Shown one piece after another: positions 1 to 33,568 of a stretch of DNA of 33,568 nt. The notes below the pieces were generated by a model. The model was not told where the DNA came from. It ran no database searches and was given only the letters and a program-made list of their open reading frames with translations. Position 1 is the stretch's first letter; every line of letters starts with the position of its first letter. The stretch is taken from NCBI RefSeq assembly GCF_988242995.1, contig NZ_OZ547045.1, one strand, 5' to 3'. A program made the position numbers and the translations under genes. Origin of the DNA: a plasmid.

Positions 1-398
1 TTTTCTTCCGGTGTCAGTTCCTTTTTCTGGTTATTCAACGATTGCCGGGCAACCTGTTGCTGCTGCTGCTGCTGCGACGTCTGCAACGGCGGAACCACAT
101 CATTTTTCGGCGTGTTGTCGATAGTCGGCGGCACATCATCGAAAGACTGGCGCGGTAATGAGCTGGTCATAACCTGCTCTTTGTCCTTTTTGGGATCGTC
201 GGCCAGCTTCTTAACGTGCATCTGGTTATAGACGAACCATCCCACCATTGCCGTACCTATCAGCACCATCAGACCGACAAAGGCCCGCGCACCGGCAATA
301 CGCTTTTTAGGTGAGCCACTAAAGCCCTGGCGCTCATCCTCGATGCCGGTATCTTCTTCATCGAGGTAATCTAAGTTTTCCTCTCTGTCTTTGCTCAT
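1..398 (-). CDS. virB10: VirB10/TrbI-family T4SS protein, N-terminal part; frame runs off position 1 and resumes in frame at 33568 (C-terminal part at 32809..33568)
   Basis: ATG at 398..396 overlaps virB9 stop (ATGA). Translation MSKDREENLDYLDEEDTGIEDERQGFSGSPKKRIAGARAFVGLMVLIGTAMVGWFVYNQ... has a TM helix and Gln/Pro-rich linker. 398 nt + 760 nt = 1158 nt = 386 codons with no stop across the junction. Confidence 0.85.
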   Translation of the reverse strand, partial: MSKDREENLDYLDEEDTGIEDERQGFSGSPKKRIAGARAFVGLMVLIGTAMVGWFVYNQMHVKKLADDPKKDKEQVMTSSLPRQSFDDVPPTIDNTPKNDVVPPLQTSQQQQQQQVARQSLNNQKKELTPEE

Positions 399-1282
399 GA
401 TTTATCCCCCTCATCTTTTTTTACGCGCTTAACGTCTGGTGACGTAGTGCCGGTATTGATCGCCCCAAGATTTGGGTTGTAATTCATATTCAGGACGCCG
501 ACGACTTTATTCCCGTAACGAACACGCCATTCTTTAGCTACCGTTTCAGCAACAACAACGTTGTTATATTCACCGGCAGGGTGCTGATTAGGGGTATGCT
601 CTTTGCCATCAGCGCCAATATAAAACACAACGGGTAAATCTGCGTTTGCAGGGAATTTAAAATAGGTGAAACGGAAATTATCCCAGACGTTTACCGGGGC
701 CAAAGACCGCGATTCATCCTCATCGGACATTTTATAAAGCAGGTTGTAAGGCCCATTCTGAAGGTCTTTTAACGCCTTTTTCACGCGGTTGCTTTCCAGC
801 GTTTTATTTGCTTTTTTCATATCCTCAAACGGATAGAGATAAGTAAGCTGGAGAGTGGCATTTTTCATGCTCCACGGGGTTTTGATAAAGTTGGCTTTAA
901 CATTACCCTGGGCGTCTGTCGTGGTGTAGTCACCTACATAGTGCAGCACGATGTTATAAGTGCGCTTATTTGTGACCAGCACAAGGTTGGTGTCGCTGGG
1001 TACTTCCCCCTTCGGTTTGATGAACATGTTATTTTCTACATGGGTAAACGCATAACTATTGCTGTCACCAAAAGCATGTGTCACATAGCTTTCATCAGGC
1101 GCAACCACTATATGAGTGGCAACACCGGCAACGGAATCAATGCGCACCACATCAACCGGGTTATACACCACAGATTTAATCCGGTAGTCATATGGGCTAC
1201 CTTTCCCCACTTCCAGCGCCAGCGCCTGACCAGAAAGGCCAAGACTGACCAGAATTAAACCGGCAATTAATTGTTTTTTCAT
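395..1282 (-). CDS. virB9: VirB9/TrbG-family T4SS outer-membrane complex protein
   Basis: 295 aa, N-terminal signal peptide, beta-rich VirB9-like sequence, located between virB8 and virB10. Confidence 0.85.
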   Translation of the reverse strand: MKKQLIAGLILVSLGLSGQALALEVGKGSPYDYRIKSVVYNPVDVVRIDSVAGVATHIVVAPDESYVTHAFGDSNSYAFTHVENNMFIKPKGEVPSDTNLVLVTNKRTYNIVLHYVGDYTTTDAQGNVKANFIKTPWSMKNATLQLTYLYPFEDMKKANKTLESNRVKKALKDLQNGPYNLLYKMSDEDESRSLAPVNVWDNFRFTYFKFPANADLPVVFYIGADGKEHTPNQHPAGEYNNVVVAETVAKEWRVRYGNKVVGVLNMNYNPNLGAINTGTTSPDVKRVKKDEGDKS

Positions 1283-1284
1283 GA

Positions 1285-2007
1285 TCAGCCCCCCACAGCG
1301 CCAACGTTCTCAGCGTTCTTACGGTAACTCGTTACACGGAAGCCAAGCGGATTGATATAGCGCTGCTGCGCGGTCATTGGTAACGCTTTGTACTCATATG
1401 CAATCGTGGCAATCCAGTAGCGCGGAGGCTCAGGGTTTGGACGCTGGCGAATGCGCTGCTGCGTGGTGAAGCGAACGGTGGCAACGCCGTGTTCGCGGTC
1501 GGTTATGACAGAGTTGATATGAACGGTCGTCCTTTCCGTGTCGCCCAACCGCTTATCAATGCGGTTAGCGCCTTTGAACATGGAAAGATATTCATCTGCT
1601 ACATCACCGGCAGCCATCAGGCTCATTGCGTCATAATCAACCTGAATGCTGTTGTAGTCGTAGGACTCGCGGTGAATAACAAATTGTGAGATCCAGTATT
1701 GGTCTATCACATCGCCATAAGTGGCCTCATCGCGGGTAATTTTTACCTGCGATACTTCGCCAGTGTCTTTGTTAATCGTTGTGAGGTATGCCGGTAACGG
1801 CTGCGCAAAACGGATAATTACTCCGACCGCAGTAACCATGCTCACAACTGCAAAGACGAAAAAGGCCGTGGCAATCTTCCAGGCGCGTGAACGTGAATTA
1901 AGGATCTCATTAACCATATCGCGCTCAAGCCCTTGAGTTTCCTCATGGTACTTATTCAGCTCATCCCGCGATATTGCCTGATTTTTGTTTTTCTTAAACA
2001 TTGTCAC
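1285..2007 (-). CDS. virB8: VirB8-family T4SS inner-membrane protein
   Basis: 240 aa, single N-proximal TM helix followed by a periplasmic domain; synteny. Confidence 0.85.
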   Translation of the reverse strand: MTMFKKNKNQAISRDELNKYHEETQGLERDMVNEILNSRSRAWKIATAFFVFAVVSMVTAVGVIIRFAQPLPAYLTTINKDTGEVSQVKITRDEATYGDVIDQYWISQFVIHRESYDYNSIQVDYDAMSLMAAGDVADEYLSMFKGANRIDKRLGDTERTTVHINSVITDREHGVATVRFTTQQRIRQRPNPEPPRYWIATIAYEYKALPMTAQQRYINPLGFRVTSYRKNAENVGAVGG

Positions 2008-2174
2008 TCTCCGTTATTAGCGGCATCTGCACGATACAGCTCTGCGGGATACGTCTTGTTAACATCAACCAGCTTTCTCATGTTGGGTTCTGGCGGCGGC
2101 TTCGGGCTACTGGAACATGCGGCTAACATCAACCCGATAAGGGCCATTGCCGTGTATTTGAAGAAATGCACCAT
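2004..2174 (-). CDS. virB7: VirB7-like small lipoprotein
   Basis: Lipobox LAAC after a hydrophobic leader, Pro-rich mature part; ATG at 2174 preceded by GGGAG; ORF track extends to 2219 but has no RBS there; overlaps virB8 start. Confidence 0.6.
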   Translation of the reverse strand: MVHFFKYTAMALIGLMLAACSSSPKPPPEPNMRKLVDVNKTYPAELYRADAANNGE

Positions 2175-2213
2175 CTTTGTCACTCCCTTTGAGTCAGTCA
2201 CAAAAAAATAATA

Positions 2214-2243
2214 AGTCATCGAAATTACAATTTCAATGACTTA
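2214..2243. promoter_or_regulatory. 30-bp near-perfect palindrome overlapping a predicted minus-strand promoter (TTGAAA-17-TATTAT) upstream of virB7
   Basis: AAGTCATCGAAATTACAATTTCAATGACTT; shares the core TTGAAATTnCAATTTCAATGA with the site at 8650..8673. Confidence 0.5.
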
Positions 2244-2269
2244 TTAGAAATTTATTTCTACATCGTTTT

Positions 2270-3310
2270 TTAGCGCCGTGAACCCTTTGCGAAACCCTGC
2301 ATTTGAGAGGTCGCAGCGGAGGCCGCACCTGCGCCGGGGCCACCGGCAGCGGTAGCCGCCGCAGTCTTAGCACCAGAGCCGCCACCGGCACCCGCAGAGC
2401 CTTTTTGACCACCATCGCGGAGAGCGCCACCCCCACGGCTACCACCACCACCGTTGTTAGGAACCAGCTCCTGAATGCCCGCAGAAACACCATCCCCCCA
2501 ACGAGCGGCAATTTCAGGTACTCGCTGAAGGATCAGGTAAGAGACAATCATTATCAGCAGACACGCGAACACCGGCCCTAACAGGCTGGTATCAGCCCCG
2601 GAAGCGGTGACGGCATCGAGTGCCTTTTGATAGAACTTAATCATCAAGCCAAACAGCATCGACAGCAGGATTGTAACCAAGCCATAGTTAATCAACGAGC
2701 CAAGCCATTTATTGAACATGCCATGCAGCGGCTTGAATAACAGGCAGAAAATAAAGACAGGCCCAAAGCACACAGTGATTGCCAACAGTAACTTCGCCAT
2801 CAATATCAGCCCGGCCCCGATACCACAGATCAGCACCGTGGAGATAATGACGGCACAAGCCAGGAACAAAGACGCCAACCCGGAACCGCTATAAATATCG
2901 GCGTTATCAAATGCAGTACGTGCAACCTGCATCCCGTCATGAATAGCCTTGTCAATGTTGTTACCCATTGCATCTTCAGTGCCACCAGTCGAACCGTTAA
3001 TAACCAGCACCGAGGAAAACTCATCGGGGATCTTCATGGCCGCATCAGCCAGTTGGGTTTGATACAGCCCGCCCGCACTGGCAAAGCTGATTATCATCGA
3101 CCACACAATGAATTTTTTTATCAACGATGAGAGCGGATCACCATGTGGACGCGCTAATGTAAAAAGCCCGTCCAGGGTTAGTTTGCAAATCAACGCTAAC
3201 CCGATTACCGGTGAAATGGTGGATATAACAATTCCAAGATTAGAGGCCACAAATTCCTTTGTGACCGTATCCATGTAATTGAAAAGATCCGTTGTAAATG
3301 AAAAGGCCAT
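2270..3310 (-). CDS. virB6: VirB6-family polytopic T4SS membrane protein with C-terminal Gly/Ala-rich tail
   Basis: 346 aa, multiple hydrophobic helices, synteny after virB5/eex. Confidence 0.85.
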   Translation of the reverse strand: MAFSFTTDLFNYMDTVTKEFVASNLGIVISTISPVIGLALICKLTLDGLFTLARPHGDPLSSLIKKFIVWSMIISFASAGGLYQTQLADAAMKIPDEFSSVLVINGSTGGTEDAMGNNIDKAIHDGMQVARTAFDNADIYSGSGLASLFLACAVIISTVLICGIGAGLILMAKLLLAITVCFGPVFIFCLLFKPLHGMFNKWLGSLINYGLVTILLSMLFGLMIKFYQKALDAVTASGADTSLLGPVFACLLIMIVSYLILQRVPEIAARWGDGVSAGIQELVPNNGGGGSRGGGALRDGGQKGSAGAGGGSGAKTAAATAAGGPGAGAASAATSQMQGFAKGSRR

Positions 3311-3330
3311 GCTTTCCCCCTACGCCCTGT

Positions 3331-3567
3331 TCAGGGCGTGACTTTTGGCAATGAAAGGCCATCGTCATTTTTGCCAAACACTTTTAAATCTTTCTCTGCC
3401 TCCATCGCGTTCTGACAATCTGGCTTCACTTTGAGCGCCGCATCATCACGGCACTTTTCCACCATTGCTTTACGCTCTTTATCGTGCTCCTTGTACCAGG
3501 AAACAGGATGCTCAGAGTCGCAACCGGCCAGCAGGAAAAGAGCTAAAGGTAAAATCAGTTTTTTCAT
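3331..3567 (-). CDS. Small lipoprotein at the position of the entry-exclusion gene (eex) of pKM101-type T4SS loci
   Basis: 78 aa, lipobox LAGC, located between virB5 and virB6. Confidence 0.6.
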   Translation of the reverse strand: MKKLILPLALFLLAGCDSEHPVSWYKEHDKERKAMVEKCRDDAALKVKPDCQNAMEAEKDLKVFGKNDDGLSLPKVTP

Positions 3568-3570
3568 GGT

Positions 3571-4278
3571 TTATTCCGTTACGTTAGGCATGGAAAGATC
3601 TTCACCATCAGCACCGAGTACAAAGCGCTTCTGGGCGTATTGTTTTTGTTCCTGCAACATCTTGTCTTGCGAGGTTTGCAGCATTGCCATCAGTTGCAGC
3701 TTCGTTTGCTCCCCCTGAATAGCACCTTGCGCGGTCTGGATACGCGCCTGAAGGTCAGCGATTTGTTTCATATCCGTTGTTGAGTCAATTTGATTGGTCA
3801 GCTCCTGAATGTTGTTCAGCTCTGCCATTTCATTGTTATAAGCGGTCTGCGCCATCACGCGGTCATAAGCCCCTTTTTCAGCCAGTTTCTGCTTAATGAA
3901 ACTCATCGCTTCGGAACGGTTCATACCGTCAATCTGCGACTGAAATTCCTTCAGCATGGATTGAGCCGATGAAGTGATACCGGAATTGCTGTTCATGGCA
4001 TCGCTGTAAACCTGCGTCCAGTCAGACGGTAAATTTCCTTTGAGCTTACTAATGTCGCCATTCAGCAAATTACCAATGCCGGAGTTGCCGGTTAACGAGG
4101 CAAGGGTTTGCTCCTGCCTCAGCAATTGAGATTTGAGTTGTTCAATTTGCTGCGTCATTAACGAAACCTGTTCAACAGCCTGGGCCAGATTAGTAGGATC
4201 GTTAACAACCAGTTGCGCATTAACGGCAACCGGTGAAATAGCCAGAGCTAAAAAAACGCTAACAAGTGTCTTTTTCAT
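3571..4278 (-). CDS. virB5: VirB5-family minor pilus protein
   Basis: 235 aa, signal peptide, Gln-rich helical sequence, synteny after virB4. Confidence 0.8.
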
Positions 4279-4287
4279 GTCGTTACC

Positions 4288-6924
4288 TCACGCTGCGAGT
4301 ACAGATTTAAAGTAGGATTCGAGCCATTTATCAGGGGTATCATCCCCAATTTGCTCAATGATTTTCGCCAGTGTTTCGGCGTTTTGTGGTTCCCCTGACA
4401 GGATGCTAAGTATCTTGTCCAGCTTCCTGAAGTTCTCAGGCGTCTTAACGCGCGGGGCCAGGTTGAATTGCGCCATCGCACTTTGACTACCTTGTTTCAC
4501 AAGGAACTGGCGGGAGTTCTCAGGAATAGACAACAGCGCGTCAAACTCTGCCGGTGTCAGCTTGAGACGGGTTACGTAGTCCTCATAATCCGCATCCGGG
4601 TTTTCCAGAAGAATTTTAGTTACGCACTGCTGCATGATGGTTTTGCCAATGGCACTATCCAGCGCATCGTTTGGCTCTTGCGTGGAGAATACGTAAACCG
4701 CGTCTTTCTTACGGTCTGTTTTCAGGCCGCGTTTCACTTCCACCCGCATAATGGGATCGTCAAGGTACTGGTGAAACTCGTCGAATATCTGAATAACCCG
4801 GCGGCGGCCATCAATAGACTGACGCACACGGAAATTGAGATACATCAGCAGCGGTGTACGTGTTGCAGGAGGTATTTCATTATCTGCAACAATGAAATCA
4901 GTCAGGTCAAAACCGTAAATATCGTACTCACCGAGATTGAGGGAATCCGCGTCGTTATCGAACAACCACCCGTTTTCATGGCCGCGAGTCCACGGAACAA
5001 GCAACGATGCCAGCGTTTGTTTGCTACCCGCTGTTTGATATGGGTTAGGCATCTGACGCATCAACATATCCACGGTACGTAAATCCGTAGGGATAAGGGA
5101 GTTCTCATCCATCAAAGCGTCAACAGCGCGGTTAAGGTCATTCACCTGATCAGCATCGAGCACACTGCCTTTGGTAATTTCAGCACACAGGCGCATCAGG
5201 CGCTTACAAAACGCAATGTTAACTTTAGTGCCTGGCATCTGTAGAGGTGCCCACCCGGACGCAACACCTTCTTTCAAAACTGTATAGTGACCGTGTAACG
5301 CTTTAATCAGCGGCATCATGCCCTGATCACGGTCATAGGCAAAAATGCGCGGGTTATACTTCATTGATTGCGTCAGCAGGAAATTAAGCAGCGTCGTTTT
5401 ACCGGCCCCCGAACGGCCAAGCATTAACGTATGCGCCAGCGGGCGCTTACCGAAAGACATTTCATCTGCGGGCGTTACATGAAAGTTCATATACAGCGGC
5501 GTATTTGCCACAGTCTTGAACAACGTCAGTGCTGGCCCCCACGGATTATTGTTTGCTTTCCCGGACATAAAATTATGGAAAGGAGAGAAACAAAGAAAAT
5601 TCCAGCTATTCAGCGGGCAAGGGCGCGGCGATAAATGTTGATTAGCCGGGAGTTTTGCATAATAGGCCGCTTCGGAAGCTAACCCTACCTGGCTGGCGAT
5701 CAAGCCGCAATTGTTCAGCATATTTCTGGCTACACCGGCGTTTGAACGGGCCTCTTTGAGAGACTTGCCAAAGGTGTGTACCGTCAAATGATGCCAGCCC
5801 ATGATAAAGGTACGTGAAACCACGCCATCAACGGCGTCACTCATCTGGTTTATCTGCGTAAAGGACGGATCGCCTGTTTCCAGCAGCGCTTTTTGCTGGT
5901 TAGTAAGGTAAGTTCTTGCCGCTTGCTGGGACATACAGCAATACGTTTGAGTTAATACAAACTCAAACGGTGCTTCCATCAGGATATTGATTTGACCTGG
6001 TTCTGTATCAGAATCGTAATCCCGGATTTCAACGGCAGACGTGTAGCGGCGTTCGTCAGTACCGCGAATCTCGATACCATCCCCCCAAAATGAGGATATT
6101 GGGCGGGTAGTAGCTAAATATTCACGGATTCGGCCACGACAAACCGGCACTGGTGCCCACTCACCGTTAACCAGGTAATAGAGCCACTCAAGCGCTTTAG
6201 AATAGGTGTGTTGAGCACCACTAAAGACTTCTTTATCTTCCTGAATGTCCTGATATTCCACATCAGCCAGTAAATCCTCACGCAGATCGATAATGTCCTC
6301 ATCATCATCTTCTTCTGCATCTTCCTTTTTCTGCTCAGGAATGACATTCCCTCGCTTGTCGCGGAAGTAATAGCCTAAACGGTCGATGCCATAAGGACGC
6401 AGGGAGTTCATGACCTGCTCACAAACATCTTCCAACGCACCAATAGCATCAGTTTGCATTTCGCGCAGCTCGTCAGCCGATGGCTTATCAAACTTTGCCA
6501 GCATTTTTTGAGCGGCATCCCCTACCGGGTTATAAACAACCGTTAGGTAGAGGTCATTTACCATCATAGGAGTATCATCAAACTGATCGCGATAGTATTC
6601 ATTCACCATGCGCGGGAACGTCATATTGTAATGCGTGTCAGGATAATTATTAATTTCGCGGTGGTGTAAGTGAGTCCATAACTTAATATGTTCACTACCA
6701 ATACCCTTTAAAAGCTGATTTAAATCGGCATGCCACTTAATAAGTTCGGCATCAGAAGCGCAATCATGAGTTCGCCCCCGAATTTTAAATACAGAAAGGT
6801 ACTCCCCATTTACCGTACTGATAATATGAGGTGTTACATGGTAGGAGTAAGGAATATATTTTAAAGAGGATGGTTCTTTTCTGTAATCTTTAACCCCCCT
6901 CTTTTTCATTTCCGCTACGGCCAT
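4288..6924 (-). CDS. virB4: VirB4-family T4SS ATPase
   Basis: 878 aa, Walker A GRSGAGKT, characteristic size and position. Confidence 0.95.
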   Translation of the reverse strand: MAVAEMKKRGVKDYRKEPSSLKYIPYSYHVTPHIISTVNGEYLSVFKIRGRTHDCASDAELIKWHADLNQLLKGIGSEHIKLWTHLHHREINNYPDTHYNMTFPRMVNEYYRDQFDDTPMMVNDLYLTVVYNPVGDAAQKMLAKFDKPSADELREMQTDAIGALEDVCEQVMNSLRPYGIDRLGYYFRDKRGNVIPEQKKEDAEEDDDEDIIDLREDLLADVEYQDIQEDKEVFSGAQHTYSKALEWLYYLVNGEWAPVPVCRGRIREYLATTRPISSFWGDGIEIRGTDERRYTSAVEIRDYDSDTEPGQINILMEAPFEFVLTQTYCCMSQQAARTYLTNQQKALLETGDPSFTQINQMSDAVDGVVSRTFIMGWHHLTVHTFGKSLKEARSNAGVARNMLNNCGLIASQVGLASEAAYYAKLPANQHLSPRPCPLNSWNFLCFSPFHNFMSGKANNNPWGPALTLFKTVANTPLYMNFHVTPADEMSFGKRPLAHTLMLGRSGAGKTTLLNFLLTQSMKYNPRIFAYDRDQGMMPLIKALHGHYTVLKEGVASGWAPLQMPGTKVNIAFCKRLMRLCAEITKGSVLDADQVNDLNRAVDALMDENSLIPTDLRTVDMLMRQMPNPYQTAGSKQTLASLLVPWTRGHENGWLFDNDADSLNLGEYDIYGFDLTDFIVADNEIPPATRTPLLMYLNFRVRQSIDGRRRVIQIFDEFHQYLDDPIMRVEVKRGLKTDRKKDAVYVFSTQEPNDALDSAIGKTIMQQCVTKILLENPDADYEDYVTRLKLTPAEFDALLSIPENSRQFLVKQGSQSAMAQFNLAPRVKTPENFRKLDKILSILSGEPQNAETLAKIIEQIGDDTPDKWLESYFKSVLAA

Positions 6925-7238
6925 TATTTTTTATCTCCATAATCGGTAGGTGAGTAACTAGAGCCGCCCCATAGCTTAGTAAATGGGGAGTTAATCATAT
7001 TTAGCCCTTTCGTCATGATAGCGAGCCATATAATGCGAAACATACGGTCGTCATGCTTGCTGATACAAAATTCAATAAACCACAGCAAGCCAAAAAGAAC
7101 TAAGGCCCAAAGGTGGATCGTCATAAATAACGTCGCACAAAATATGAAGGTGGCAATAATCACTGTTCGCGGAACACCGGCAAATGTCGGCAGTCGCGTA
7201 GCGCCTTTAAATAATGGATATTTACCGGATAAATTCAT
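6924..7238 (-). CDS. virB3: VirB3-family T4SS membrane protein
   Basis: 104 aa, two hydrophobic segments, stop overlaps virB4 ATG (ATGA). Confidence 0.85.
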   Translation of the reverse strand: MNLSGKYPLFKGATRLPTFAGVPRTVIIATFIFCATLFMTIHLWALVLFGLLWFIEFCISKHDDRMFRIIWLAIMTKGLNMINSPFTKLWGGSSYSPTDYGDKK

Positions 7239-7287
7239 CGTTTCCTCCCGTTAGATACGGGCCGGGGGAAACCCCCGGCAAACCTTC

Positions 7288-7578
7288 TTAACTCAGCCCA
7301 AACAGGCCAACCAGGTAGGACGCGGAACCGACGACAATCAGACCGACAACAATACGAACCGCCCAGCTAGCAGGGAGCATATGAGCGATCCACGCGATAG
7401 CACTGACGATAATCAGAACGGTGGCCGCAACCGGAATCCACGTCATTAACCAGGAGTTAACCGAACTCATGGAGGATTCACCGGTATCTGCACCGGCGGC
7501 AAGCGCCAGCTCAGGAGCACACAAAGCAACCATCATGAACATTGCCACCGGGAAATAACGTTTAATCGCTGTATTCAT
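7288..7578 (-). CDS. virB2: VirB2/TrbC-family pilin precursor
   Basis: 96 aa, long signal sequence then two hydrophobic helices typical of T-pilin. Confidence 0.85.
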   Translation of the reverse strand: MNTAIKRYFPVAMFMMVALCAPELALAAGADTGESSMSSVNSWLMTWIPVAATVLIIVSAIAWIAHMLPASWAVRIVVGLIVVGSASYLVGLFGLS

Positions 7579-7879
7579 CTTTGTCTAACACTCCATCATC
7601 AGGAAAAATAAAATCAGGCTCATCCAGGAAAAGCCCCACTTCTTTTGCATCAAAATCGTCTCTCAGCATTTCGGCCAGTATCCTCAGATCGGCCCACGTT
7701 CTAACCCCCTCTCCAGACTGGACTCGCAGGGAGCACGTAATTACTCCCCCCTCGCTATTTCTCACATCAAAAAGCGGTATCCATTTCTTTTTATCCATCC
7801 GTTGAATAGCGATACGAATTACTTTTTTTTGATTAAAAACTTCCTCTAACTGCTTCAACAAGATGAGATAAACGCGCAT
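7562..7879 (-). CDS. Hypothetical 105-aa protein between virB1 and virB2 (the position occupied by korA in pKM101/R388-type loci)
   Basis: Intact ORF overlapping virB2 start; no motif recognised; function assigned by position only. Confidence 0.5.
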   Translation of the reverse strand: MRVYLILLKQLEEVFNQKKVIRIAIQRMDKKKWIPLFDVRNSEGGVITCSLRVQSGEGVRTWADLRILAEMLRDDFDAKEVGLFLDEPDFIFPDDGVLDKDEYSD

Positions 7880-7906
7880 TGAGCGAACTCCTGTTACTCC
7901 CTGCTT

Positions 7907-8640
7907 CTACCGAAAAGCGTCACCATCAGATGCACCAAAAGCGTCTTTATCCGAGCCACCAAAGGCATCAGTCATACCGGCATCTTTTGGTTTTTCTTCA
8001 CCAACAGCAGCATCTACCGGCACAGCATCAATAGCAGCATCAACACTTTCTATATCAGTGGAACCATCATCGGCTTTCAGAGCAGGGATTACGGGTTTTG
8101 ATTGCCCTATTTGAGCAACCACCTTCGAAACATAACCGTTTGTAAATCCGGCGGTTAATGAACCCGTATTATAGCAAGACAATGCGTGTCTCAAAGCTGA
8201 CTGCCCCGGCGCATATTCCTTTGTTGCGAGCTGGTAGCAGTAGTTAAGTACCGTTTGTGCAGCTTCAAGATTTTTACAGCCATTAAACAGGTCAGCGGCT
8301 GAAACATTCAATTTTGAGAAATTCGCAGAGTTGATTTGCCCTAAACCTACGTCAAAGTTATAACCATGAGCCGTTAACCATTCGGTCGTTTTCACAGCCT
8401 CATCAAGTGATCGCGGTTGTTTAGCTAGCGGTGATTTCGTACCTTCAGGAACGTTAACGTTTATCGCGTATGGGTTGTTGCGCGATTCATGGCTAACCAA
8501 GTAACCAACAGTTAATGGGTGTACTTCTGGCGCACAACGTTTCGCCAACGCCATAACTGGCGCAGACAGCTCCGCAGTTGCGGGCGTGGCACCCATAAGA
8601 CCAGCAATTAACAGTGGGAAAAGGCTAACAACCTGCTTCA
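7907..8640 (-). CDS. virB1: VirB1-family lytic transglycosylase with C-terminal DAFG-repeat tail
   Basis: Signal peptide MKQVVSLFPLLIAGLMGATPATA, SLT-like core (ESR.NPYA...GLGQIN), start taken at ATG 8640 with AAGGA RBS; ORF track extends further upstream. Confidence 0.85.
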
Positions 8641-8649
8641 TCTCTTTTT

Positions 8650-8673
8650 TCCTTGAAATTGCAATTTCAATGA
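8650..8673. promoter_or_regulatory. Palindromic operator-like site in the divergent virB1 / hns-like promoter region
   Basis: TCCTTGAAATTGCAATTTCAATGA containing the perfect 18-bp palindrome TTGAAATTGCAATTTCAA; overlaps a plausible TTGCAA-17-TATAGT plus-strand promoter. Confidence 0.55.
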
Positions 8674-8703
8674 TTAACTGGTATAGTAAAGGTAAATTAG
8701 AAC

Positions 8704-8940
8704 ATGTCAAGACAAGATGAAAAGAAGCACAAAACAGAGCAGGAGCGCAAAACATCAGTGCCTAGACGAAAAATCATATTCGTACCCTTGCAGTCAGAAA
8801 AAAGCCCCAAAGGGGAGCCGCGCTACAGAGATCCCACCAATCCATTCAACACATGGGTTGGGAGGGGAAAGCGCCCTGACTGGCTAAAAAAGTATCTTGC
8901 TGAAGGCCGCGAGCTTTCGGAGTTTGAGATAACAGAATAA
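8704..8940 (+). CDS. Short H-NS C-terminal-domain-like DNA-binding protein (no oligomerisation domain)
   Basis: 78 aa; C-terminus ...FNTWVGRGKRPDWLKKYLAEGRELSEF matches the H-NS DNA-binding motif TW(T/S)G(R/Q)GR.P. Confidence 0.6.
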   Translation: MSRQDEKKHKTEQERKTSVPRRKIIFVPLQSEKSPKGEPRYRDPTNPFNTWVGRGKRPDWLKKYLAEGRELSEFEITE

Positions 8941-8951
8941 GGAGTTGACGG

Positions 8952-9404
8952 ATGAGTAAAGTTATTGATTTTCCTACCGGGAAAAACAGGGAGAGAAGGG
9001 CTAAGGCGATCCGGGCGCGTCGTAATAAGGCGCAGCAGCGGAGCGGAATAACCCCCTCCCAATTTTGGTGGGTAAAGAAAATAAAGTTTCTCACCGTTAT
9101 TAAAGGGTCGGCACGTTTACTTTTGATACATTCAGGGTTATTAGTTGCCGACATCCTTATCTATCTCATCTTTATTTTAGGAAAACTCCTAAAGGTATTT
9201 ACGATAATTGGCATCATCGCGGCGCTTCTGTTTCTGGTCGTGGAATATAGGAAGGATTGGCAATATACGCAATCCGCAATCCACGTCGCAGCACTATTTG
9301 TTGGCCTGGTAGTAATACGTATCGGGCATGACAAACTACTGAATGGCCTGATAAGGCTTAAATCCTACCTATCCAGAAAAGGGCAACAACAATGCGGAAG
9401 ATAA
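8952..9404 (+). CDS. Hypothetical membrane protein with basic N-terminal region
   Basis: 150 aa, AAGGAG RBS, Arg/Lys-rich N-terminus followed by hydrophobic helices. Confidence 0.6.
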   Translation: MSKVIDFPTGKNRERRAKAIRARRNKAQQRSGITPSQFWWVKKIKFLTVIKGSARLLLIHSGLLVADILIYLIFILGKLLKVFTIIGIIAALLFLVVEYRKDWQYTQSAIHVAALFVGLVVIRIGHDKLLNGLIRLKSYLSRKGQQQCGR

Positions 9405-9709
9405 TACTTGCGTCCGTGGTGATACTGGCATCGTCTTATTCGGCTGCCAGCCTTGCAAAAGATCCATGTAAGACATTAGCTTGCATGGCTGCAAAATCAG
9501 GTGGTGAGTTTGGGAGTGTTGGCGATAGTGATTGCTCTGGTGCCATAGCTGACTTCTTCAACATTGTGAAGAAAAACAAACACGGCTTCCTTCCTAACCA
9601 TACCGCCGATGCTCGCAAAGAATTTATTATGAGTTGTCCAGGAGCGGCGCAGAACACCGCCGCAGTTAACCGGGTTATTTCAATGTTTGGACGTATCAGG
9701 AAAGGTTAA
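9392..9709 (+). CDS. Hypothetical secreted Cys-containing protein
   Basis: 105 aa, signal peptide ending ASLA, several cysteines; overlaps upstream gene end. Confidence 0.5.
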   Translation: MRKIILASVVILASSYSAASLAKDPCKTLACMAAKSGGEFGSVGDSDCSGAIADFFNIVKKNKHGFLPNHTADARKEFIMSCPGAAQNTAAVNRVISMFGRIRKG

Positions 9710-9711
9710 AC

Positions 9712-10026
9712 ATGAAACTTAAAAGCATGATCTTTACCGCCGCTCTTTTACTGACAGGTTGCGCCAGTCAATCACAGGTTGAGCAGCTAACCAAGCAGGT
9801 GAACACGCTCAAAACAGATATGTATAACCTACAGATTCAACAGCGTAACGATACTAAGGCACTTCAGCGCGAGGTACAGAAATCTCGCCCAATCGGTGTT
9901 TGCTACCTTGACGGCCAGCCCTATTCACAGGGAGCGGTCATTGCTGGCCGCATTTGCGCCAGCAATGGCGTTATTGTCAACGACAGGCCCGCAGAAGTTT
10001 CATGGCAGGTTTATCACCGCCGCTAA
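9712..10026 (+). CDS. Hypothetical lipoprotein
   Basis: 104 aa, lipobox LTGC, abuts upstream gene. Confidence 0.55.
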   Translation: MKLKSMIFTAALLLTGCASQSQVEQLTKQVNTLKTDMYNLQIQQRNDTKALQREVQKSRPIGVCYLDGQPYSQGAVIAGRICASNGVIVNDRPAEVSWQVYHRR

Positions 10027-10071
10027 CAGCAAATCCGGGGCTTCGGCCCCGTTTTTTATGGTACAGGTAGC

Positions 10072-10725
10072 ATGGACATACTTTCTCTTTTCCCGTCTAA
10101 CCTCATCGCATTATGGGCCGTCTCATTCGGTTTTCTGGCCGTCCTGTATTGGTGGAAAGTCACCGGCAGAAAACGCAGACACAAGCGCAAACAGCAACAG
10201 GCCCGGCGTGTACTCGCAAAAATTCAGACTCTACCGGGGTTCGGCTACAAGATCGCGTATCTCAGAAAGATAGACCCTTTCACCTTTGAAGAATTATTAC
10301 TGGAGGGGTTTGAATCGCATGGCTTCAGAACTATCAGAAACAAGCGCTATACCGGCGATGGAGGCATTGACGGCCAGGTAATCATTGGAAAGGATCGCTA
10401 TCTCATCCAGGCCAAACGCTATGGCGGTCATATCGCTTTACAGCACGTTCAGGAGTTCGATAAGTTGCTTAAACGTCATAATTGTCGCGGTCTGTTTTGC
10501 CATACCGGAAAAACCGGCGCAGGTTCAAAATCAGTTAGCCTTGCCAGTGATCGGATGGAGATTATCAGCGGCCAGCGCCTTATTGATTTACTCACGCCCG
10601 GCAGCTCCTTCACCATCGCAACCGCACCGCAGACAATGATGAGGCGTACCGCAGCAACGCGAGGAACGAACACCATTGTCGAGGAAGCGGATAAAGAAAC
10701 AACCAACAGCATGAGAGTTAATTAA
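10072..10725 (+). CDS. Membrane-anchored Mrr-like (PD-(D/E)xK restriction-endonuclease-fold) protein
   Basis: 217 aa; N-terminal TM helix and poly-basic stretch, then GDGGIDG ... IQAKRY motifs characteristic of the Mrr catalytic domain. Confidence 0.7.
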   Translation: MDILSLFPSNLIALWAVSFGFLAVLYWWKVTGRKRRHKRKQQQARRVLAKIQTLPGFGYKIAYLRKIDPFTFEELLLEGFESHGFRTIRNKRYTGDGGIDGQVIIGKDRYLIQAKRYGGHIALQHVQEFDKLLKRHNCRGLFCHTGKTGAGSKSVSLASDRMEIISGQRLIDLLTPGSSFTIATAPQTMMRRTAATRGTNTIVEEADKETTNSMRVN

Positions 10726-11127
10726 ATGAAGTCTGTAACTATAGAAGCTAAAGCGTTTGCTGAAATGTTGGGAATAACAGAGGGTGAGTTAGTTATTGCT
10801 ATCAAGACAACTGGAAAATTTAAAAACAAGACTATTCCACAGCCTCATACTCCCCATAAATCGAAGAACAGATTTTTATATTCTGACGTGGTGAAGTTTA
10901 TGGAATCAATAAAGCAAAAAGAAAATCTACATAAAAGTTACTTGATGCGTTTTCGTCGGTGCAGGTCATTAGATACTCTTGAAAAGGTATTTGAAAGTTT
11001 GCGCGAAAAGTTAACGGGTAACGAACTGGACGCAATGATGAGCGCGTCAGACCATCGCAGAGCCGAAATTGCTCACAATACTTTATGGGATAAAGTCCCG
11101 GCATCTGCATGGAGAAATGTAAAATAA
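10726..11127 (+). CDS. Hypothetical protein with putative HTH, AT-rich, translationally coupled to the Mrr-like gene
   Basis: 133 aa; ATG overlaps the upstream stop (TAAATG); visibly lower GC than the neighbouring gene; followed by a terminator. Confidence 0.55.
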   Translation: MKSVTIEAKAFAEMLGITEGELVIAIKTTGKFKNKTIPQPHTPHKSKNRFLYSDVVKFMESIKQKENLHKSYLMRFRRCRSLDTLEKVFESLREKLTGNELDAMMSASDHRRAEIAHNTLWDKVPASAWRNVK

Positions 11128-11158: not shown

Positions 11159-11485
11159 CTATCCAATCAGCACTTTTATTTTAGCCCTAACCTCAGCTAA
11201 TACGACAGGAGGCACTTTTCCCTTTTTAACCGCGCCACGTTCCCGCCAATCAAGGCTTTTCACCTGGTCAGCCAGTACAGCGCTCCCCTCCCCGCTCATA
11301 ACCTCAAACGGATAACCTTTTATTTTTGTTGTCATAGGGCAGCACAGCAACAACCCTATTCTGCCGTTATATACCGCAGGGCTTAACACTAAGGCTGGTC
11401 TATGCCCCGCTTGTTCATGCCCTGCTTGCGGATTAAAATCCATCCATACAATATCACCGGCATCAGGAATATAGTCATTCGCCAT
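11159..11485 (-). CDS. mazF: MazF/PemK-family endoribonuclease toxin
   Basis: 108 aa; YIPDAGDIVWMDFNPQAGHEQAGHRPALVLSP ... LADQVKSLDWRERGA ... KVLIG closely resembles E. coli MazF (from memory). Confidence 0.9.
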   Translation of the reverse strand: MANDYIPDAGDIVWMDFNPQAGHEQAGHRPALVLSPAVYNGRIGLLLCCPMTTKIKGYPFEVMSGEGSAVLADQVKSLDWRERGAVKKGKVPPVVLAEVRAKIKVLIG

Positions 11486-11753
11486 TTTCTAACTTCTTCC
11501 TTCTATAGCCAACCCAGATAAACGTCAAAATGATAACGCCGCAAAGAATAAACATCAGTGCAACTGGAGTTGTATCGAGCACAGAAATAACTTGCTTACC
11601 ACCCTGATCGTCTAATGAAAAAGATTTATCATTAAACAACCTGTCTATACCCAACCATATTGAGTAAACGGCAATCCAAACCCATGCAACCTTACCGGCT
11701 ATATCCAGTAAAGCCACCACTCTTTTAAATATTTTTTTCATTGCAGGAGACAT
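11475..11753 (-). CDS. Hypothetical two-helix membrane protein inserted between mazE and mazF
   Basis: 92 aa; ATG 1 nt after mazE stop, stop overlapping mazF start by 11 nt; two hydrophobic segments. Confidence 0.5.
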   Translation of the reverse strand: MSPAMKKIFKRVVALLDIAGKVAWVWIAVYSIWLGIDRLFNDKSFSLDDQGGKQVISVLDTTPVALMFILCGVIILTFIWVGYRRKKLENGE

Positions 11754-11754
11754 A

Positions 11755-20348: not shown

Positions 20349-20352
20349 CGGA

Positions 20353-20380: not shown

Positions 20381-20473
20381 GCTCCCCTTGCTTACCCTGC
20401 TGTACGATCCGTGGATTTCACAGTTGAATAATTTTTTGTGGTCGCCGTAATTGGCCCCGCTGCGCCAGTCGCT

Positions 20474-22306: not shown

Positions 22307-23074
22307 TTAGGCTGCCTGGTATTCTGCCTTTCCGCAGTGTTCGCCGCCACAGTACAGAATTAGGCCCGGTTTCCCCCAAACGTTGGTATGGCATTTCGGG
22401 CAGGTGTATTTTGTCCGGTTTGATTTATTAACCGGCGTATCCGGTGGCGGGTTTACCAGGGAAAGGGCTTGCGTGATCTCATCATCCAGCTCGCCATTGT
22501 CGCTGTAACCCTCATCATCATCGCCATCATCAACATAACCTTTGCCGTCTGCGCCGGTTGGCGTTGGTGGCGTTGGTTTGTGCGGTGGGAACCTGTCCAG
22601 CCAGCTCAGTTTAAACTCCGTGGTTAGCAACTCCTTGCAGGCTGTATCAAACGGGCCGCCGTCCTCGATGTAGTGGCTCATCGACTCACCGACGCGCTTT
22701 CCTCCGGGCTGGCCGCTGTCGGATGGTATCAGGCCGATGCGCTCCATCATCGCCGCCCACTCTTTATTGTGGTATCCACGGCGTCCCGGTTGGCCGGTGT
22801 GTTGTTGGTACTGGTGAACCATTTCATGCACAAGCGTGGAAAGTGTGTCGCGTATCGTGCGGATCGAGAAATAGACCGGATTCATGGCGATTTCATCAAC
22901 GATTTGGCCGGTTGTGCGGCCAACAAAACGGGCATTTGAGAAATAGCCAAACGTTCGTTTTTCGCGCTGAAGGGTGATTAGGCAGGGCGGCAGCGTACTA
23001 TCAAACAGCCGCTGATTGAAAAATTCGTATGCGCGTTGAAGCTCGTCGTAAGTTTCCTGGGTAGGGATGATCAT
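22307..23074 (-). CDS. SprT-like zinc metalloprotease-domain protein with C-terminal zinc ribbon
   Basis: HEMVHQY (HExxH) motif, acidic linker, CPKCH...YCGGEHCG; start taken at ATG 23074 (TGAGG RBS); ORF track extends to 23113 across the operator repeats. Confidence 0.7.
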   Translation of the reverse strand: MIIPTQETYDELQRAYEFFNQRLFDSTLPPCLITLQREKRTFGYFSNARFVGRTTGQIVDEIAMNPVYFSIRTIRDTLSTLVHEMVHQYQQHTGQPGRRGYHNKEWAAMMERIGLIPSDSGQPGGKRVGESMSHYIEDGGPFDTACKELLTTEFKLSWLDRFPPHKPTPPTPTGADGKGYVDDGDDDEGYSDNGELDDEITQALSLVNPPPDTPVNKSNRTKYTCPKCHTNVWGKPGLILYCGGEHCGKAEYQAA

Positions 23075-23095: not shown

Positions 23096-23141
23096 CTGGA
23101 TTGTGCAATCCATTTTATTGCTTATGGATTGTGCAATCCAC
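23096..23141. promoter_or_regulatory. Two copies of the palindrome GGATTGTGCAATCC in the promoter region upstream of the SprT-like gene
   Basis: Copies at 23098..23111 and 23126..23139; the same 14-mer occurs three times inside the stbA-like gene. Confidence 0.6.
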
Positions 23142-23656: not shown

Positions 23657-23657
23657 A

Positions 23658-24839: not shown

Positions 24840-25290
24840 CTATATGGCAGCCTGTTTTAGCTGTCAATCGGTTTTTGTAGTATTTCAGTAGTATTCCTGT
24901 AGTAATTCAGTAGTAACGCTTGTCGATACCGCTCATTTTTGTAGTATATCTGTAGTAATGGCTATTTCAGTTTGTAGTATTTTAGTAGTAATTCAGTAGT
25001 ATCGGTGTAGAAAACTTTCATGCAAGCATGAAAGTGGTGAATGTGAACGCTTTTTGAGCGTTTTATGCGTGTGTAAGACCTGTTTCTCCCTTAAAAAAGG
25101 CGTGTTATGGTATCCCTTAATGGCTATACACCATACGCAATTACGATTTTCATCGTAAATGCTTGAAAACAAAACAAATTATTCTAATTTGTGTTTTCAT
25201 ATGTAATACACTACGTATTACATATGTGTGTCTAAGCCGCATATATGCTAGATTTAACTGTATTACATCGGTATTACATCAAGGAAACCC
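24840..25290. other. oriT region: 11-bp direct repeats, inverted repeats and a putative nic site
   Basis: About 10 copies of (T/A)GTAGTA(T/A)(T/A)nn in 24876..25010; IR ACTTTCATGCaaGCATGAAAGT (25014..25035); IR CATATGTAATACactacGTATTACATATG (25198..25226) followed by GTGTGTCT|AAGCC. Confidence 0.65.
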
Positions 25291-30419: not shown

Positions 30420-30687
30420 CAAGAAGGGGTCAGTTTGGAGATCGGAAATTTTTGTACGTTAAGCGCATTATTTAACCAATCTTGGTTCGTAAGGGGTTGA
30501 TTTTGCGTCAGTGGCTATCGCTTTTAAGTTGTCGCTCTTGCAGTATCGCATTTAGGTTATCCGATTAAGGTCAAACCTCTGAAAATGCCGTATAGCGCGG
30601 GAGTACACCCTATTGCTATAGGTAAGTCTGTTCAAAAAACAGGCTTACCGTACAATAATTCTCTATATCCAAACTGACCCCAAGAAG
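30420..30687. mobile_element. MITE-like non-autonomous element: 12-bp terminal inverted repeats flanked by a 7-bp direct repeat
   Basis: CAAGAAG (30420..30426) - GGGTCAGTTTGG (30427..30438) ... CCAAACTGACCC (30669..30680) - CAAGAAG (30681..30687); 254 bp between TIR ends; no ORF inside. Confidence 0.55.
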
Positions 30688-31267: not shown

Positions 31268-31822
31268 TCAATAAGACGGGGTAAAATCCCGGCCCTGATC
31301 CCAGCGAGATTGCCAGTGCTTCTGATACTGCGCGGCCAGTTCCGGCGCATCCCACATCACAATAGCGTTTTCAGAGTTATATTTTTCGGCGCTGGCCGTG
31401 TAGTTAAAACTACCGGTTTCCACATGGCGACCATCAACTATGATCACTTTGTCATGCTGGATTTTGTAATTACCGTTAACCCGCAGAGGAATACCGGCAC
31501 TTGTAACCAGATTCATTGCCGCACGACTCGCCCGGCCAGTATTACCATTCTCATCAATGACGATTTTCACATCGACGCCCCGGCGTTTAGCCGCAATCAG
31601 CGCTTTCATAATATCGGGGGCGGTAAAGCTGTAGGCCATCATTCTGATGTTCTCTTTTGCCGAACCGATAACGTTGATAACAAGCTCCTGCGCCGTCCCT
31701 TCTGGCGAAAAACCTACTTGCGCCGATGCAGCATAAACAGACGGGGCCGCAGCCCCGTAAAGTACGGCGGCAACCAGTGCCGCTTTAAAGAGAAAGTTGC
31801 GCTTTTTTAAACGCTGGATCAT
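31268..31822 (-). CDS. nuc: Phospholipase-D-superfamily endonuclease (Nuc-like), secreted
   Basis: HKD motif (IQHDKVIIVDG), signal peptide; start taken at ATG 31822 (ORF track extends to 31864); overlaps virB11 3' end. Confidence 0.8.
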   Translation of the reverse strand: MIQRLKKRNFLFKAALVAAVLYGAAAPSVYAASAQVGFSPEGTAQELVINVIGSAKENIRMMAYSFTAPDIMKALIAAKRRGVDVKIVIDENGNTGRASRAAMNLVTSAGIPLRVNGNYKIQHDKVIIVDGRHVETGSFNYTASAEKYNSENAIVMWDAPELAAQYQKHWQSRWDQGRDFTPSY

Positions 31823-32816
31823 AAAGAACCTCAACAATCTGGCGGTGTTCCATGTACACAACAATATCTATCGTGGTGTACAGCGTTTTCATAATTACGT
31901 CATAATCCAGCGTCTGGCCGATGCCGGTTTGCTTGATAAGTAGTGCAATGCGGCTGAAAGTCGATTTTGCATCATCGGCATGAGTGGATGTGATCCCGCC
32001 AGGATGCCCGGTATTAAGCGAGTTAATGTAATCCCATGCCGCATCATCCCTAAGCTCTGTCATCATGATACGGTCGGGAGAAAGGCGCATACACGCTTTC
32101 AGACTGACCGCCGGGGCCAGGCGGCCCTCCTGATCGCCGTACAGCATATAAACCATTTCATGATGTAGCTCAGACCCAATTTCGTGAACGTCCTCAGAAA
32201 CCACAATACGCTCTGTATAAGGCACTTCACGAAGCAGAGAACGGGTAAACGTTGACTTACCCGAACTTGTAGACCCCGATACAACGATATTCAGCTTATT
32301 GCGTACCGCTATTTTGAAAAACGAAACAAGGTCGTCTTTATCAAGCAATTCCAGTAATTCTTGCTCGAATGGCAGTAGGGCCACTTCACCCTGAATCTTT
32401 CGTTTCCAGCCAGTAAAACGGCCCTCATCGCGGAGTTGTTCGAGAGACTTATCAACCGGTAAATGCTTACGAAACGCGATTGCTACCGTACCCTCCAATA
32501 CGGCAGGGGGTAAGCAGATAATCCCCCTTGAGCCGTCCGGCAGAAGAACGTTATTAACGGACTCTTTCGGCAGACCGTTGAAGCCACACAGCGTATCGGT
32601 TAATCGGGAGATATACTCAGCGGTGATTTTCTCATTTTCATGGAAAACACGGCCTTTCGATGTTTCACAAACAACCTGCTGATACTTGTTGATTCTCAAC
32701 TCCCACACATCGGGATCGTTCAGGTACATCAGAAGTGGTTCGAGCGTCAGCCATACGCCCTGCTCACGGCGGGGGCGCTGGCGAATATCTTCAATATTGC
32801 TGATTAAATCACTCAT
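31785..32816 (-). CDS. virB11: VirB11-family T4SS ATPase
   Basis: 343 aa; Walker [10 protein letters not shown]; overlaps virB10 stop. Confidence 0.9.
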
Positions 32817-33568
32817 TCATTTCTAACCCATAAACAGTGCTGAAATCGAGATCGCGGGCTACGTAGATGGATACAGCATCGCCCTGGGCGGCATAGAGTG
32901 TTGGCGGGATATTGATTTTCGCCCGTAATGCCTCCGTAGCAAGCTGGTCGGTACTGTTTTCCGTTGTGTTAAACGTCACATCAGAGCTGTTGTTGTTTAT
33001 CGACGCGATACCGGCTTTCATCCCATCAGTCAGCACAGAGAAAAAGATTGCATCGCCCATGCGTTCCCAAAAGTGAGAATTAACCTGGCCGGGAATGCCC
33101 GCACTACCTAAAGAGTTAGTGCCGCTGCTGTCGAGGTTAACAAGCGTCTGATCCGGGTTACGCAAGCGTGACCAGAGGACAAACACACGATTCTGGCCGT
33201 TCTGGATACCGCTATTCTGCTCACCCGTTACTACAGCCCCTTTATCAATCAGTTTCACAGTGCCATCGGCAGAGTACACATCACGGCTAACGGTACATTT
33301 AACCTGGCCCGGAACAGTGGTATCCAGTTCGGTATTTGTACCGCAAGGGATCATAGTGCCTTGCGCAATTGTCAGATTGGGATGTGGCATTACAGATGCC
33401 TGGGCGACGGCCATACGCGCCGGTTTCATACGGCTAGCCAGTGCCTGGCTGCTTGAGCTGGTTTCTGTATTGTCCTGACCGGCCCGGCGCTCCTGGTCTT
33501 TCGCTGTCGTGGCCTGTTTTTCAGGATCTACACCGTTGAAAGACACACCTAACCGGGCGCGCATTATT
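32809..33568 (-). CDS. virB10: VirB10/TrbI-family protein, C-terminal part (continues in frame from positions 2..1 across the window junction)
   Basis: VirB10 C-terminal beta-barrel-like sequence; frame continuous with the N-terminal part at 1..398. Confidence 0.85.

Follow-up and report, generated by a model that had tools for sequence, protein, structure and literature searches.

The IncN3 plasmids pR16.0676_34k, pN-Cit, and pKP2648-34 have been grouped together (PMC9430514), and self-transmissibility has been shown experimentally for pKP2648-34 (PMC9430514). Members of this family transfer at very high frequency and, in Klebsiella, mobilise virulence and carbapenemase plasmids that are themselves nonconjugative (PMC9430514). 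We use IncN3 in the sense of the literature, with membership anchored on pR16.0676_34k (NZ_CP029801), which is grouped there with pN-Cit (JQ996149); the PlasmidFinder reference for “IncN3” is pJIE137, a label that conflicts with the treatment of pJIE137 as IncN2 in PMC5371602. The window, by which we mean the whole stretch of 33,568 nt analyzed here, encodes a RepA with 98.3% amino acid and 90.3% nucleotide identity to that of pR16.0676_34k and has the same iteron core, and its backbone is syntenic with IncN3 and clearly apart from IncN1 and IncN2. On its sequence, the plasmid is assigned to the IncN3 (pN-Cit/pKP2648-34) helper family, as a sister lineage that has diverged by about 10% at the nucleotide level.

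The likeness to IncN3 plasmids includes size class (34 to 35 kb versus 33.6 kb in the window), gene order around the whole circle, and MOBF and MPF_T typing, together with the CUP repeats, mazEF, Mrr, Hha, nuc, and GNAT genes and the lack of resistance genes. Most type IV secretion system (T4SS) and Dtr proteins are 91 to 99% identical to their IncN3 counterparts. The closed relatives have about 90% nucleotide identity to the window, whereas two of them, L001 and L017, are about 98% identical to each other. Several small accessory ORFs of L001 (3808-4350, 4941-5378, and 31909-32250 in L001) are missing from the window, which in turn has a unique stretch at 18968-19304. The window also differs in one extra Gln in the poly-Q tract of VirB10 and in a 256-bp miniature element inserted at 30426. 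The lack of a resistance gene is consistent with the role described for IncN3 members as cryptic, highly transmissible helper plasmids. This second, ~10%-diverged lineage already occurs in numerous public draft assemblies, a sign that the helper family extends further than its handful of closed members would imply. Being resistance-free, it is easily overlooked.

In the window, virB10 lies between virB9 and virB11 and is divided between the two ends of the record. Its 5′ part (1..398, minus strand) begins with an ATG at 398 and runs for 132 codons, with 2 nt remaining at base 1; bases 2, 1, and 33568 then form codon 133 (AAA, Lys133). From there the frame stays open until a TGA at 32809-32811, with the listed ORF at 32809..33564 as its downstream part. 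The 3′ part (32809..33568, minus strand) thus covers everything from the final base of codon 133 through the stop and contains the TrbI domain. The remaining two minus-strand frames over the junction have many stops. The earlier note had described a 386-codon virB10 split in frame by the window ends and had proposed joining and translating them; direct translation bears this out and gives an uninterrupted VirB10 of 385 sense codons, the TGA being the 386th. Pfam TrbI (PF03743) matches residues 199 to 375 of the joined protein (E = 4.2e-50; 170.7 bits, with a Pfam gathering cut-off of 35 bits). Aligned end to end, the joined protein is 95% identical to the RefSeq VirB10 WP_001224296, and the residues at the junction, EEKIMRARLG, are the same in both and are aligned there without a gap. 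By inspection, the translation has a hydrophobic stretch, AFVGLMVLIGTAMVGWFVY, followed by a P/Q-rich segment, and these are predicted to be an N-terminal membrane anchor and a low-complexity linker. One in three random joins keeps the reading frame, and the in-frame join might have been a coincidence between ORFs that are unrelated to each other and cut off where a linear piece of DNA ends. We give this a negligible chance, since one half is the N-terminal and the other the C-terminal part of a single member of the protein family, and the joined protein aligns with VirB10 homologues without a gap at the junction and is the same as a database entry at every residue.

Three independent lines support a circularly permuted, complete replicon as far as sequence comparison can tell, namely, the junction in a closed relative, collinearity over the whole circle, and assemblies that read through the junction. 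When the final 1500 bases of the window were joined to its initial 1500 (3 kb) and compared with the closed circular plasmid NZ_CP143356.1, a single HSP was obtained in which base 33568 of the window pairs with base 16718 and base 1 pairs with base 16717, so that the two are adjacent. Over its entire length, the window is collinear with the full NZ_CP143356.1 circle (32,653 of 33,568 nt aligned) and also with the closed plasmid pR16.0676_34k. Among near-identical, independently assembled sequences, contig L005 passes through the junction at 99.97% identity over 13,287 nt, contigs L006 to L010 do likewise, and the metagenome contig OIWQ01001231.1 passes through it gap-free at 99.65% identity over 5,702 nt. 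The exact 42-nt junction pattern matched the metagenome contig and had no match in representative genomes (one genome per species); the exact 385-amino-acid VirB10 is present, uninterrupted and in a virB9-virB10-virB11 context, on at least 24 public contigs, L005 among them. The two window ends have no overlapping sequence of at least 8 nt, and there is therefore no assembler duplication to trim. The complete, circularly permuted replicon proposed in the earlier note thus holds up, given that the two end bases are neighbours in a closed relative and that near-identical contigs cross the junction ungapped.

Very probably, the window represents, in a single complete copy, a circular conjugative plasmid of 33,568 bp from the IncN3 (pN-Cit-like) family, which the assembler cut open arbitrarily within virB10 (traF in pKM101 nomenclature). 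A head-to-tail multimer would give the same linear sequence as a single circle. The window might instead be an excerpt of a larger molecule (a cointegrate, a hybrid plasmid, or a copy integrated in a bigger replicon), as IncN3-type backbones are found inside 87- to 142-kb plasmids (H4-H6, H11, and H13), parts of the window's lineage are found in a 53.9-kb contig and a 336-kb record (L008 and L009), and fusion of IncN3 with other plasmids has been documented (PMC9430514). The ends of an excerpt, however, would not abut to the base within one gene. Positions 33568 and 1 are neighbours in relatives, the joined protein is identical to database entries, and the sole foreign DNA in the window is the 256-bp miniature element, all of which makes an excerpt very unlikely. 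Knowing that the record is a circle cut in virB10 avoids both the annotation of two truncated virB10 pseudogenes and the conclusion that the T4SS is defective.

A CUP-type leading-region regulon (for the concept, see PMC5371602) occupies 15148..21106 on the plus strand. It has three conserved upstream repeats of ~400 to 530 nt (15148-15681, 18417-18951, and 20573-21106), in which 300-nt stretches are 99 to 100% identical. Between the repeats, genes on the same strand encode a DUF932 protein (16349-17281), Ssb (17281-17838), a KorA/ArdK-like repressor (17962-18264), a CcgAII-like protein (~18906-19268), and a hypothetical protein (19352-19774), and there are also small ORFs, most of which had no match in Pfam. 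An ORF of 172 amino acids at 19830-20348 was rejected as a gene, as it is made up of GC-rich repeats and has no annotation in relatives. In draft assemblies from the lineage of the window, contigs stop exactly at window position ~15243, in the CUP region. Because of the repeats and these breaks, the number and order of the segments in the 5.9 kb at 15243-21106 are taken solely from this assembly and from ~90%-identical relatives. The circle could thus be real and its assembly inexact, with a segment in the 15.2- to 21.1-kb region collapsed, lost, or reordered through the CUP repeats and a true size or order that differs from ours. In addition to the near-identical repeats and the contig ends, such an error would fit with the small indels by which relatives differ from the window in this region (for example, absence of the L001 gene at 31909-32250 and the unique window stretch at 18968-19304) and with the CUP-mediated inversions and deletions reported for IncN2 (PMC5371602). 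The order and number of the CUP-bounded segments nevertheless agree with those of closed L001 and L017, and the remaining ~27.7 kb of the circle fit the length of independent ~28-kb contigs. We regard an error of this kind as unlikely.

The T4SS operon (395..8755, minus strand) was delineated with Pfam, with amino acid identities of 91 to 99% to annotated IncN3 proteins, and by comparison with R46. It contains virB9 (395-1282; Pfam CagX), virB8 (1285-2007; VirB8), virB7/traN (2004-2174; P_T4SS_TraN), virB6 (2270-3310; TrbL), eex (3331-3567), virB5 (3571-4278; T4SS), virB4 (4288-6924; CagE_TrbE_VirB), virB3 (6924-7238; VirB3), virB2 (7288-7578; TrbC), a small ORF of 105 amino acids (7562-7879) that is 42% identical to R46 KorA, and virB1 (7907-8755; SLT). 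Together with virB10 and the gene for the VirB11/TraG ATPase (31785..32816, minus strand; T2SSE), homologues of VirB1 to VirB11 of an MPF_T system were all found, each by Pfam. On the plus strand, genes for a 115-amino-acid Dtr accessory protein (25291-25638) and a TrwB/TraD-type coupling protein (25631-27208) precede that for a MobF relaxase-helicase (27211-30117), which matches NCBIfam models NF041492 (280.5 bits; cut-off, 100) and TIGR02686 (289.8 bits; cut-off, 145.5). All T4SS and Dtr families have confirmation from Pfam or NCBIfam; within NCBIfam, no family was available for RepA, the GNAT protein, or the 115-amino-acid Dtr accessory protein. Plus-strand genes at 8704..11127 encode an H-NS-like protein in the korB position (8704-8940), a hypothetical protein (8952-9404), TrbM/KikA (9392-9709), another hypothetical protein (9712-10026), an Mrr-like nuclease (10072-10725), and a Hha-domain protein (10726-11127); a GNAT acetyltransferase (30773-31267) and a nuclease of the PLD family (nuc; 31268-31822) are encoded on the minus strand. 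By homology, transfer would proceed via the VirB-type (MPF_T) secretion system, the TrwB-type coupling protein, and the MobF relaxase, which would act at an oriT that resembles that of R388 and lies on the minus strand, and the combination of T4SS, Dtr, and oriT homologues predicts that the plasmid is self-transmissible.

Replication would depend on RepA (13069..13953, plus strand; RepA_C family) and on seven iterons at 14064..14238 (plus strand), which have the core (C/T)GTACATCCGACCCCC at ~22-nt spacing and form the presumed oriV. A serine recombinase gene (12452..13036, plus strand) encodes a multimer resolvase that would resolve multimers. StbABC and a mazEF-type toxin-antitoxin operon would position and stabilise the plasmid, again by homology. 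The latter (11159..12000, minus strand) consists of mazE (11755-12000), an ORF of 92 amino acids (11475-11753), and mazF (11159-11485); stbC (23288-23656), stbB (23658-24368), and stbA (24381-24815) are likewise on the minus strand, with a stbA promoter, TTGACA-17-TATAGT, at 24867-24839. Direct repeats phased at 11 nt (..GTAGTA..) form two arrays (24872..25013, plus strand) between this promoter and the oriT core (25060..25165, minus strand), a block conserved across IncN1, IncN2, and IncN3. Within oriT, GCGTATGGTGT/ATAGCC (25138-25122, minus strand) has a predicted nic between 25128 and 25127, and alignment with the R388 nic region scored 57, compared with 18.6 ± 3.7 for shuffles. With oriT in this orientation, the first DNA to enter the recipient would be that of the stb operon and of the CUP-controlled ssb/ardK leading region. 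Overall, the backbone modules (RepA with its seven iterons, the resolvase, stbABC, virB1 to virB11 with eex, the Dtr trio, and the R388-like oriT) are each present once, in line with the earlier note.

The view that the plasmid has no cargo stands for resistance genes and calls for a small correction as regards mobile DNA. No resistance gene was detected in the window and no resistance family was matched, and each ORF of at least 100 amino acids is matched by a backbone ORF in relatives likewise devoid of resistance genes. A 256-bp element is present at 30426-30681 (30421..30686 with its flanks), with terminal inverted repeats (IRs) of ~38 nt, 32 of 39 positions of which match, and a 5-bp duplication, AAGAA; it contains neither an ORF nor a transposase. 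Its ends (GGGG...TAAG) are what we take to be the Tn3-family type. The site is empty in L005, L007, and L009, which lack exactly 261 nt relative to the window, and in L008 a Tn3-family transposase adjoins the same IR. These properties identify the element as a Tn3-derived miniature inverted-repeat element (TIME-like). The other accessory DNA in the window comprises the mazE-orf-mazF operon and the genes for the Mrr-like nuclease, the Hha- and H-NS-like proteins, and the GNAT protein. Rfam gave no matches for the window at gathering thresholds.

Two copies of a near-palindrome, GGATTGTGCAATCC, are located at 23098..23139 (plus strand), upstream of a gene for an SprT-like metalloprotease (22307..23074, minus strand; start taken at ATG 23074). 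Three copies of the same near-palindrome lie in frame inside stbA, at 24520, 24568, and 24601, where each spans 16 nt and encodes G-L-H-N-P or V-L-H-N-T. Across IncN1, IncN2, and IncN3, the arms of the stbA copies covary with identical sites upstream of the SprT-like gene. The palindromes may be protein-binding sites that overlap the coding sequence, in analogy to the parS site inside spo0J, and would then be a candidate operator or centromere-like element of an Stb stability/transfer switch. A LexA box was ruled out as the identity of the stbA palindrome, as its spacing is CTG-N12-CAG and not N10, and string searches of the literature for the palindrome sequence returned unrelated papers only. 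That the window both represents an undescribed IncN3 sister clade and exposes an unrecognised cis-element common to all IncN plasmids is a possibility that we put forward tentatively and with some doubt.

Compared with IncN1 (R46/pKM101) and IncN2 (p271A), the window has the same layout of kikA-korB, tra/virB with eex, nuc, and traIJK-type Dtr genes, along with oriT beside stbABC, the CUP regulon, res, and rep, and conservation extends to the oriT core block GCGT..GGTGTATAGC. The T4SS and Dtr proteins of these plasmids, however, are only 35 to 58% identical to those of the window, and the window RepA is unrelated to that of R46 and 73% identical to that of p271A. The window also differs in having no mucAB, ardA/ardB, EcoRII, or integron.

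The IncW plasmid R388 has a different replicon, and its StbA lacks the LHN repeats and its stbA the intragenic palindromes seen in the window. Like the window, R388 has a MOBF relaxase, a TrwB-type coupling protein, and a VirB-type T4SS, as well as stbABC beside oriT, with 11-nt-phased repeat arrays located upstream of stbA, and its nic region is homologous to that of the window. The repeat arrays between the stbA promoter and oriT of the window are arranged like stbDR/stbS of R388, for which a model has been described (PMC3098194).

Translation over the joined ends of the window yields a minus-strand ORF that runs from the ATG at 398 to base 1 (132 codons plus 2 nt), has its codon 133 (AAA, Lys) finished by base 33568, and stays open through to the TGA at 32809-32811. 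The product, 385 residues plus stop, contains a full-length TrbI/VirB10 domain (PF03743, E=4.2e-50), and the remaining two frames over the junction have stops throughout. The coordinates that the earlier note gave for the two halves of virB10 are right, and its "386 codons" are 385 residues plus the stop codon. No overlap of at least 8 nt was found between the window ends, so no trimming is needed.

Three independent lines of sequence comparison indicate that this join is real, and all agree with the claim that the window ends split virB10 in frame. A 3-kb junction probe (the window's last 1500 and first 1500 bases) matched the closed circular IncN3 plasmid NZ_CP143356.1 in one HSP at 91.1% identity, pairing window base 33568 with record base 16718 and window base 1 with 16717. 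The residues flanking the junction (EEKIMRARLG) are identical in the two VirB10 proteins, and their sole indel, a single additional Gln, lies in a poly-Q tract clear of the junction. Among public contigs, at least 24 carry the exact 385-aa joined protein uninterrupted, in every case flanked by virB9 and virB11; one of them, GCA_025258405.1 (L005), runs through the junction and shares 99.97% identity with the window over 13,287 nt, and L006 to L010, records of the same lineage, are likewise near-identical through it. Finally, an exact-match search with 42 nt from across the junction found metagenome contig OIWQ01001231.1, which corresponds to window 31181-33568 and then 1-3314 (99.65%, zero gaps). 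The poly-Gln tract, a CAG/CAA run in the VirB10 linker (window ~50-75, codons ~108-114), reads QQQQQQQ in the window versus QESQQQ in ~90%-identical relatives and is one codon longer and purer.

The window is collinear with the entire circle of NZ_CP143356.1 (32,653/33,568 nt aligned) and with that of pR16.0676_34k, which, together with the contiguity of the junction in relatives, supports the proposal of a complete, circularly permuted replicon. MOB-suite types the relatives as IncN/MOBF/MPF_T. Identity to R46 (IncN1) is only 35-58% for the T4SS and DNA-transfer (Dtr) proteins, and the two RepA proteins are unrelated; identities to p271A (IncN2) are similar for T4SS and Dtr, with RepA 73% identical. 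In contrast, pR16.0676_34k shares the iteron core and has a RepA that is 98.3% identical at the amino acid level (90.3% nt). The IncN3 group includes pR16.0676_34k, NZ_CP026060, and LN824136 with pN-Cit and pKP2648-34 (PMC9430514), and the first three are all among the database matches of the window. This grouping, the RepA and iteron match, and the distance from IncN1 and IncN2 place the window as an IncN3-type plasmid. Members are ~34 kb and resistance-free, and pKP2648-34 transfers at ~0.75 per recipient cell and mobilises nonconjugative virulence and KPC plasmids (PMC9430514).

Nucleotide identity to the described IncN3 members is only ~90%, whereas NZ_CP143356.1 and pR16.0676_34k share ~98%; the window is read as representing a sister lineage within IncN3 on which purifying selection is strong. 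Many public draft assemblies already contain this lineage, but no closed record with more than ~91% identity was found in PLSDB or E. coli RefSeq. An embedded fragment of it, 99.96% identical, lies at 8482-13509 of the 336-kb record CP063225.1 (L009), where a truncated virB8, virB9, virB10, virB11, nuc, and GNAT adjoin resolvase, KfrA, integrase, and chromate-resistance genes. Overall, the split-gene observation is confirmed and its interpretation supported: the window is an ordinary conjugative plasmid of the IncN3 type, complete and circularly permuted.

Gene-by-gene mapping bears out the expectation of one copy each of the replication, resolution, stability, T4SS, Dtr, and oriT modules. Replication genes are repA (RepA_C; 13069-13953) with seven iterons (14064-14238), and a serine recombinase for multimer resolution lies at 12452-13036. 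Stability is represented by stbABC (NCBIfam StbA_2, StbB, and StbC), upstream of which are a sigma-70 promoter (11/12 match) and two 11-nt-phased repeat arrays similar in layout to the stbDR arrays of the IncW plasmid R388. The T4SS consists of virB1 to virB11 plus eex, and Dtr of a 115-aa accessory gene, a TrwB/TraD-type coupling protein, and a MobF relaxase-helicase. The oriT motif, GCGTATGGTGT/ATAGCC (25138-25122, minus strand), lies within a block invariant over IncN1, N2, and N3, and the R388 nic region aligns with it at a score of 57 versus 18.6 +/- 3.7 for shuffles. Because nic is on the minus strand, the leading region would comprise stbABC and ssb/ardK, the latter controlled by conserved upstream (CUP) repeats, in accord with IncN/IncW organisation.

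CUP-type repeats occur at 15148-15681, 18417-18951, and 20573-21106, with partial copies at 15902-16035, 16302-16444, and 21734-21832. The three share 300-nt stretches that are mutually 99-100% identical, yet the backbone differs from that of relatives by ~10%, which implies ongoing homogenisation (gene conversion). Because of these near-identical repeats, and because same-lineage draft assemblies stop exactly at window ~15243, only this assembly and its collinearity with ~90%-identical relatives back the structure inside 15.2-21.1 kb.

The suggestion of no obvious cargo resistance genes holds: no resistance genes were found in the window, although accessory genes are present and a 256-bp mobile element had been overlooked. 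All ORFs of at least 100 aa correspond to backbone ORFs of IncN3 plasmids, themselves without resistance genes, and the GNAT protein matched no NCBIfam resistance family. Accessory content comprises a mazE-orf92-mazF operon, an Mrr-like nuclease, Hha- and H-NS-domain proteins, a PLD nuclease, GNAT, DUF192, and DUF932. The maz operon (11159-12000) has an unusual three-gene toxin-antitoxin layout; its intervening 92-aa ORF has no family match and is only 50% identical to its counterpart in NZ_CP143356.1, which has two ORFs there. What looks like local IncN1/IncN3 mosaicism occurs at 10072-11127: amino acid identity to R46 is ~80% for the Mrr-like nuclease and for the Hha-domain protein in its N-terminal half, versus 35-58% for the remaining backbone. 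A 53-nt inverted repeat (10637-10689 and 14434-14486; 89% complementary), also in NZ_CP143356.1, has one arm at the 3' end of the Mrr-like gene and encloses the 3.7-kb hha-mazEF-res-repA-iteron module; it may be a scar from insertion or inversion of the module.

The mobile element is a Tn3-type miniature inverted-repeat element (30426-30681; 30421-30686 with flanks) with ~38-nt inverted ends, GGGGTCAGTTTGGA...GTACGTTAAG, and a 5-bp target duplication, AAGAA. The near-identical L005, L007, and L009 have an empty site exactly 261 nt shorter with a single AAGAA, which fits the expectation for Tn3-family-style insertion. At the same position, L008 carries a full Tn3-family transposon with the right IR in common, and related element copies occur in ~4,500 PLSDB plasmids, p271A among them. 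Insertion has broken a possible 38-aa hydrophobic ORF.

The one item of the window that possibly deserves further study is a set of palindromes embedded in stbA. The near-palindrome GGATTGTGCAATCC occurs in 5 copies versus 0.19 expected (IncN3 form, 14-16 nt, TGGATTGCACAATCCA): three inside stbA (24520-24533, 24568-24581, and 24601-24614) and two in the promoter region just upstream of a SprT-like gene (23098-23111 and 23126-23139). The stbA copies share one reading frame and encode G-L-H-N-P in the C-terminal half of StbA, and NZ_CP143356.1 has the same layout (25503-25597 and 26979). String searches of the searchable literature found no description of the motif; parts of the StbA literature describe the C-terminal domain as nonconserved and unstructured. 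Nothing comparable occurs in StbA of R388. In R46 and p271A, a variant, TGTATTGCACAATACA, is found in frame three times within stbA and encodes V-L-H-N-T, with identical codons in 5/6 copies despite the high divergence of both plasmids, and the variant also lies upstream of SprT-like genes and beside orfD (sites at 20734, 20785, 30005, and 22548 in R46 and at 20485, 20536, 20587, 18175, and 18847 in p271A). Since the palindrome arms co-vary between stbA-internal and external sites (IncN3 versus IncN1/IncN2) and the codons are near-invariant over diverged plasmids, the comparison suggests a candidate protein-binding DNA site overlapping the stbA coding sequence.
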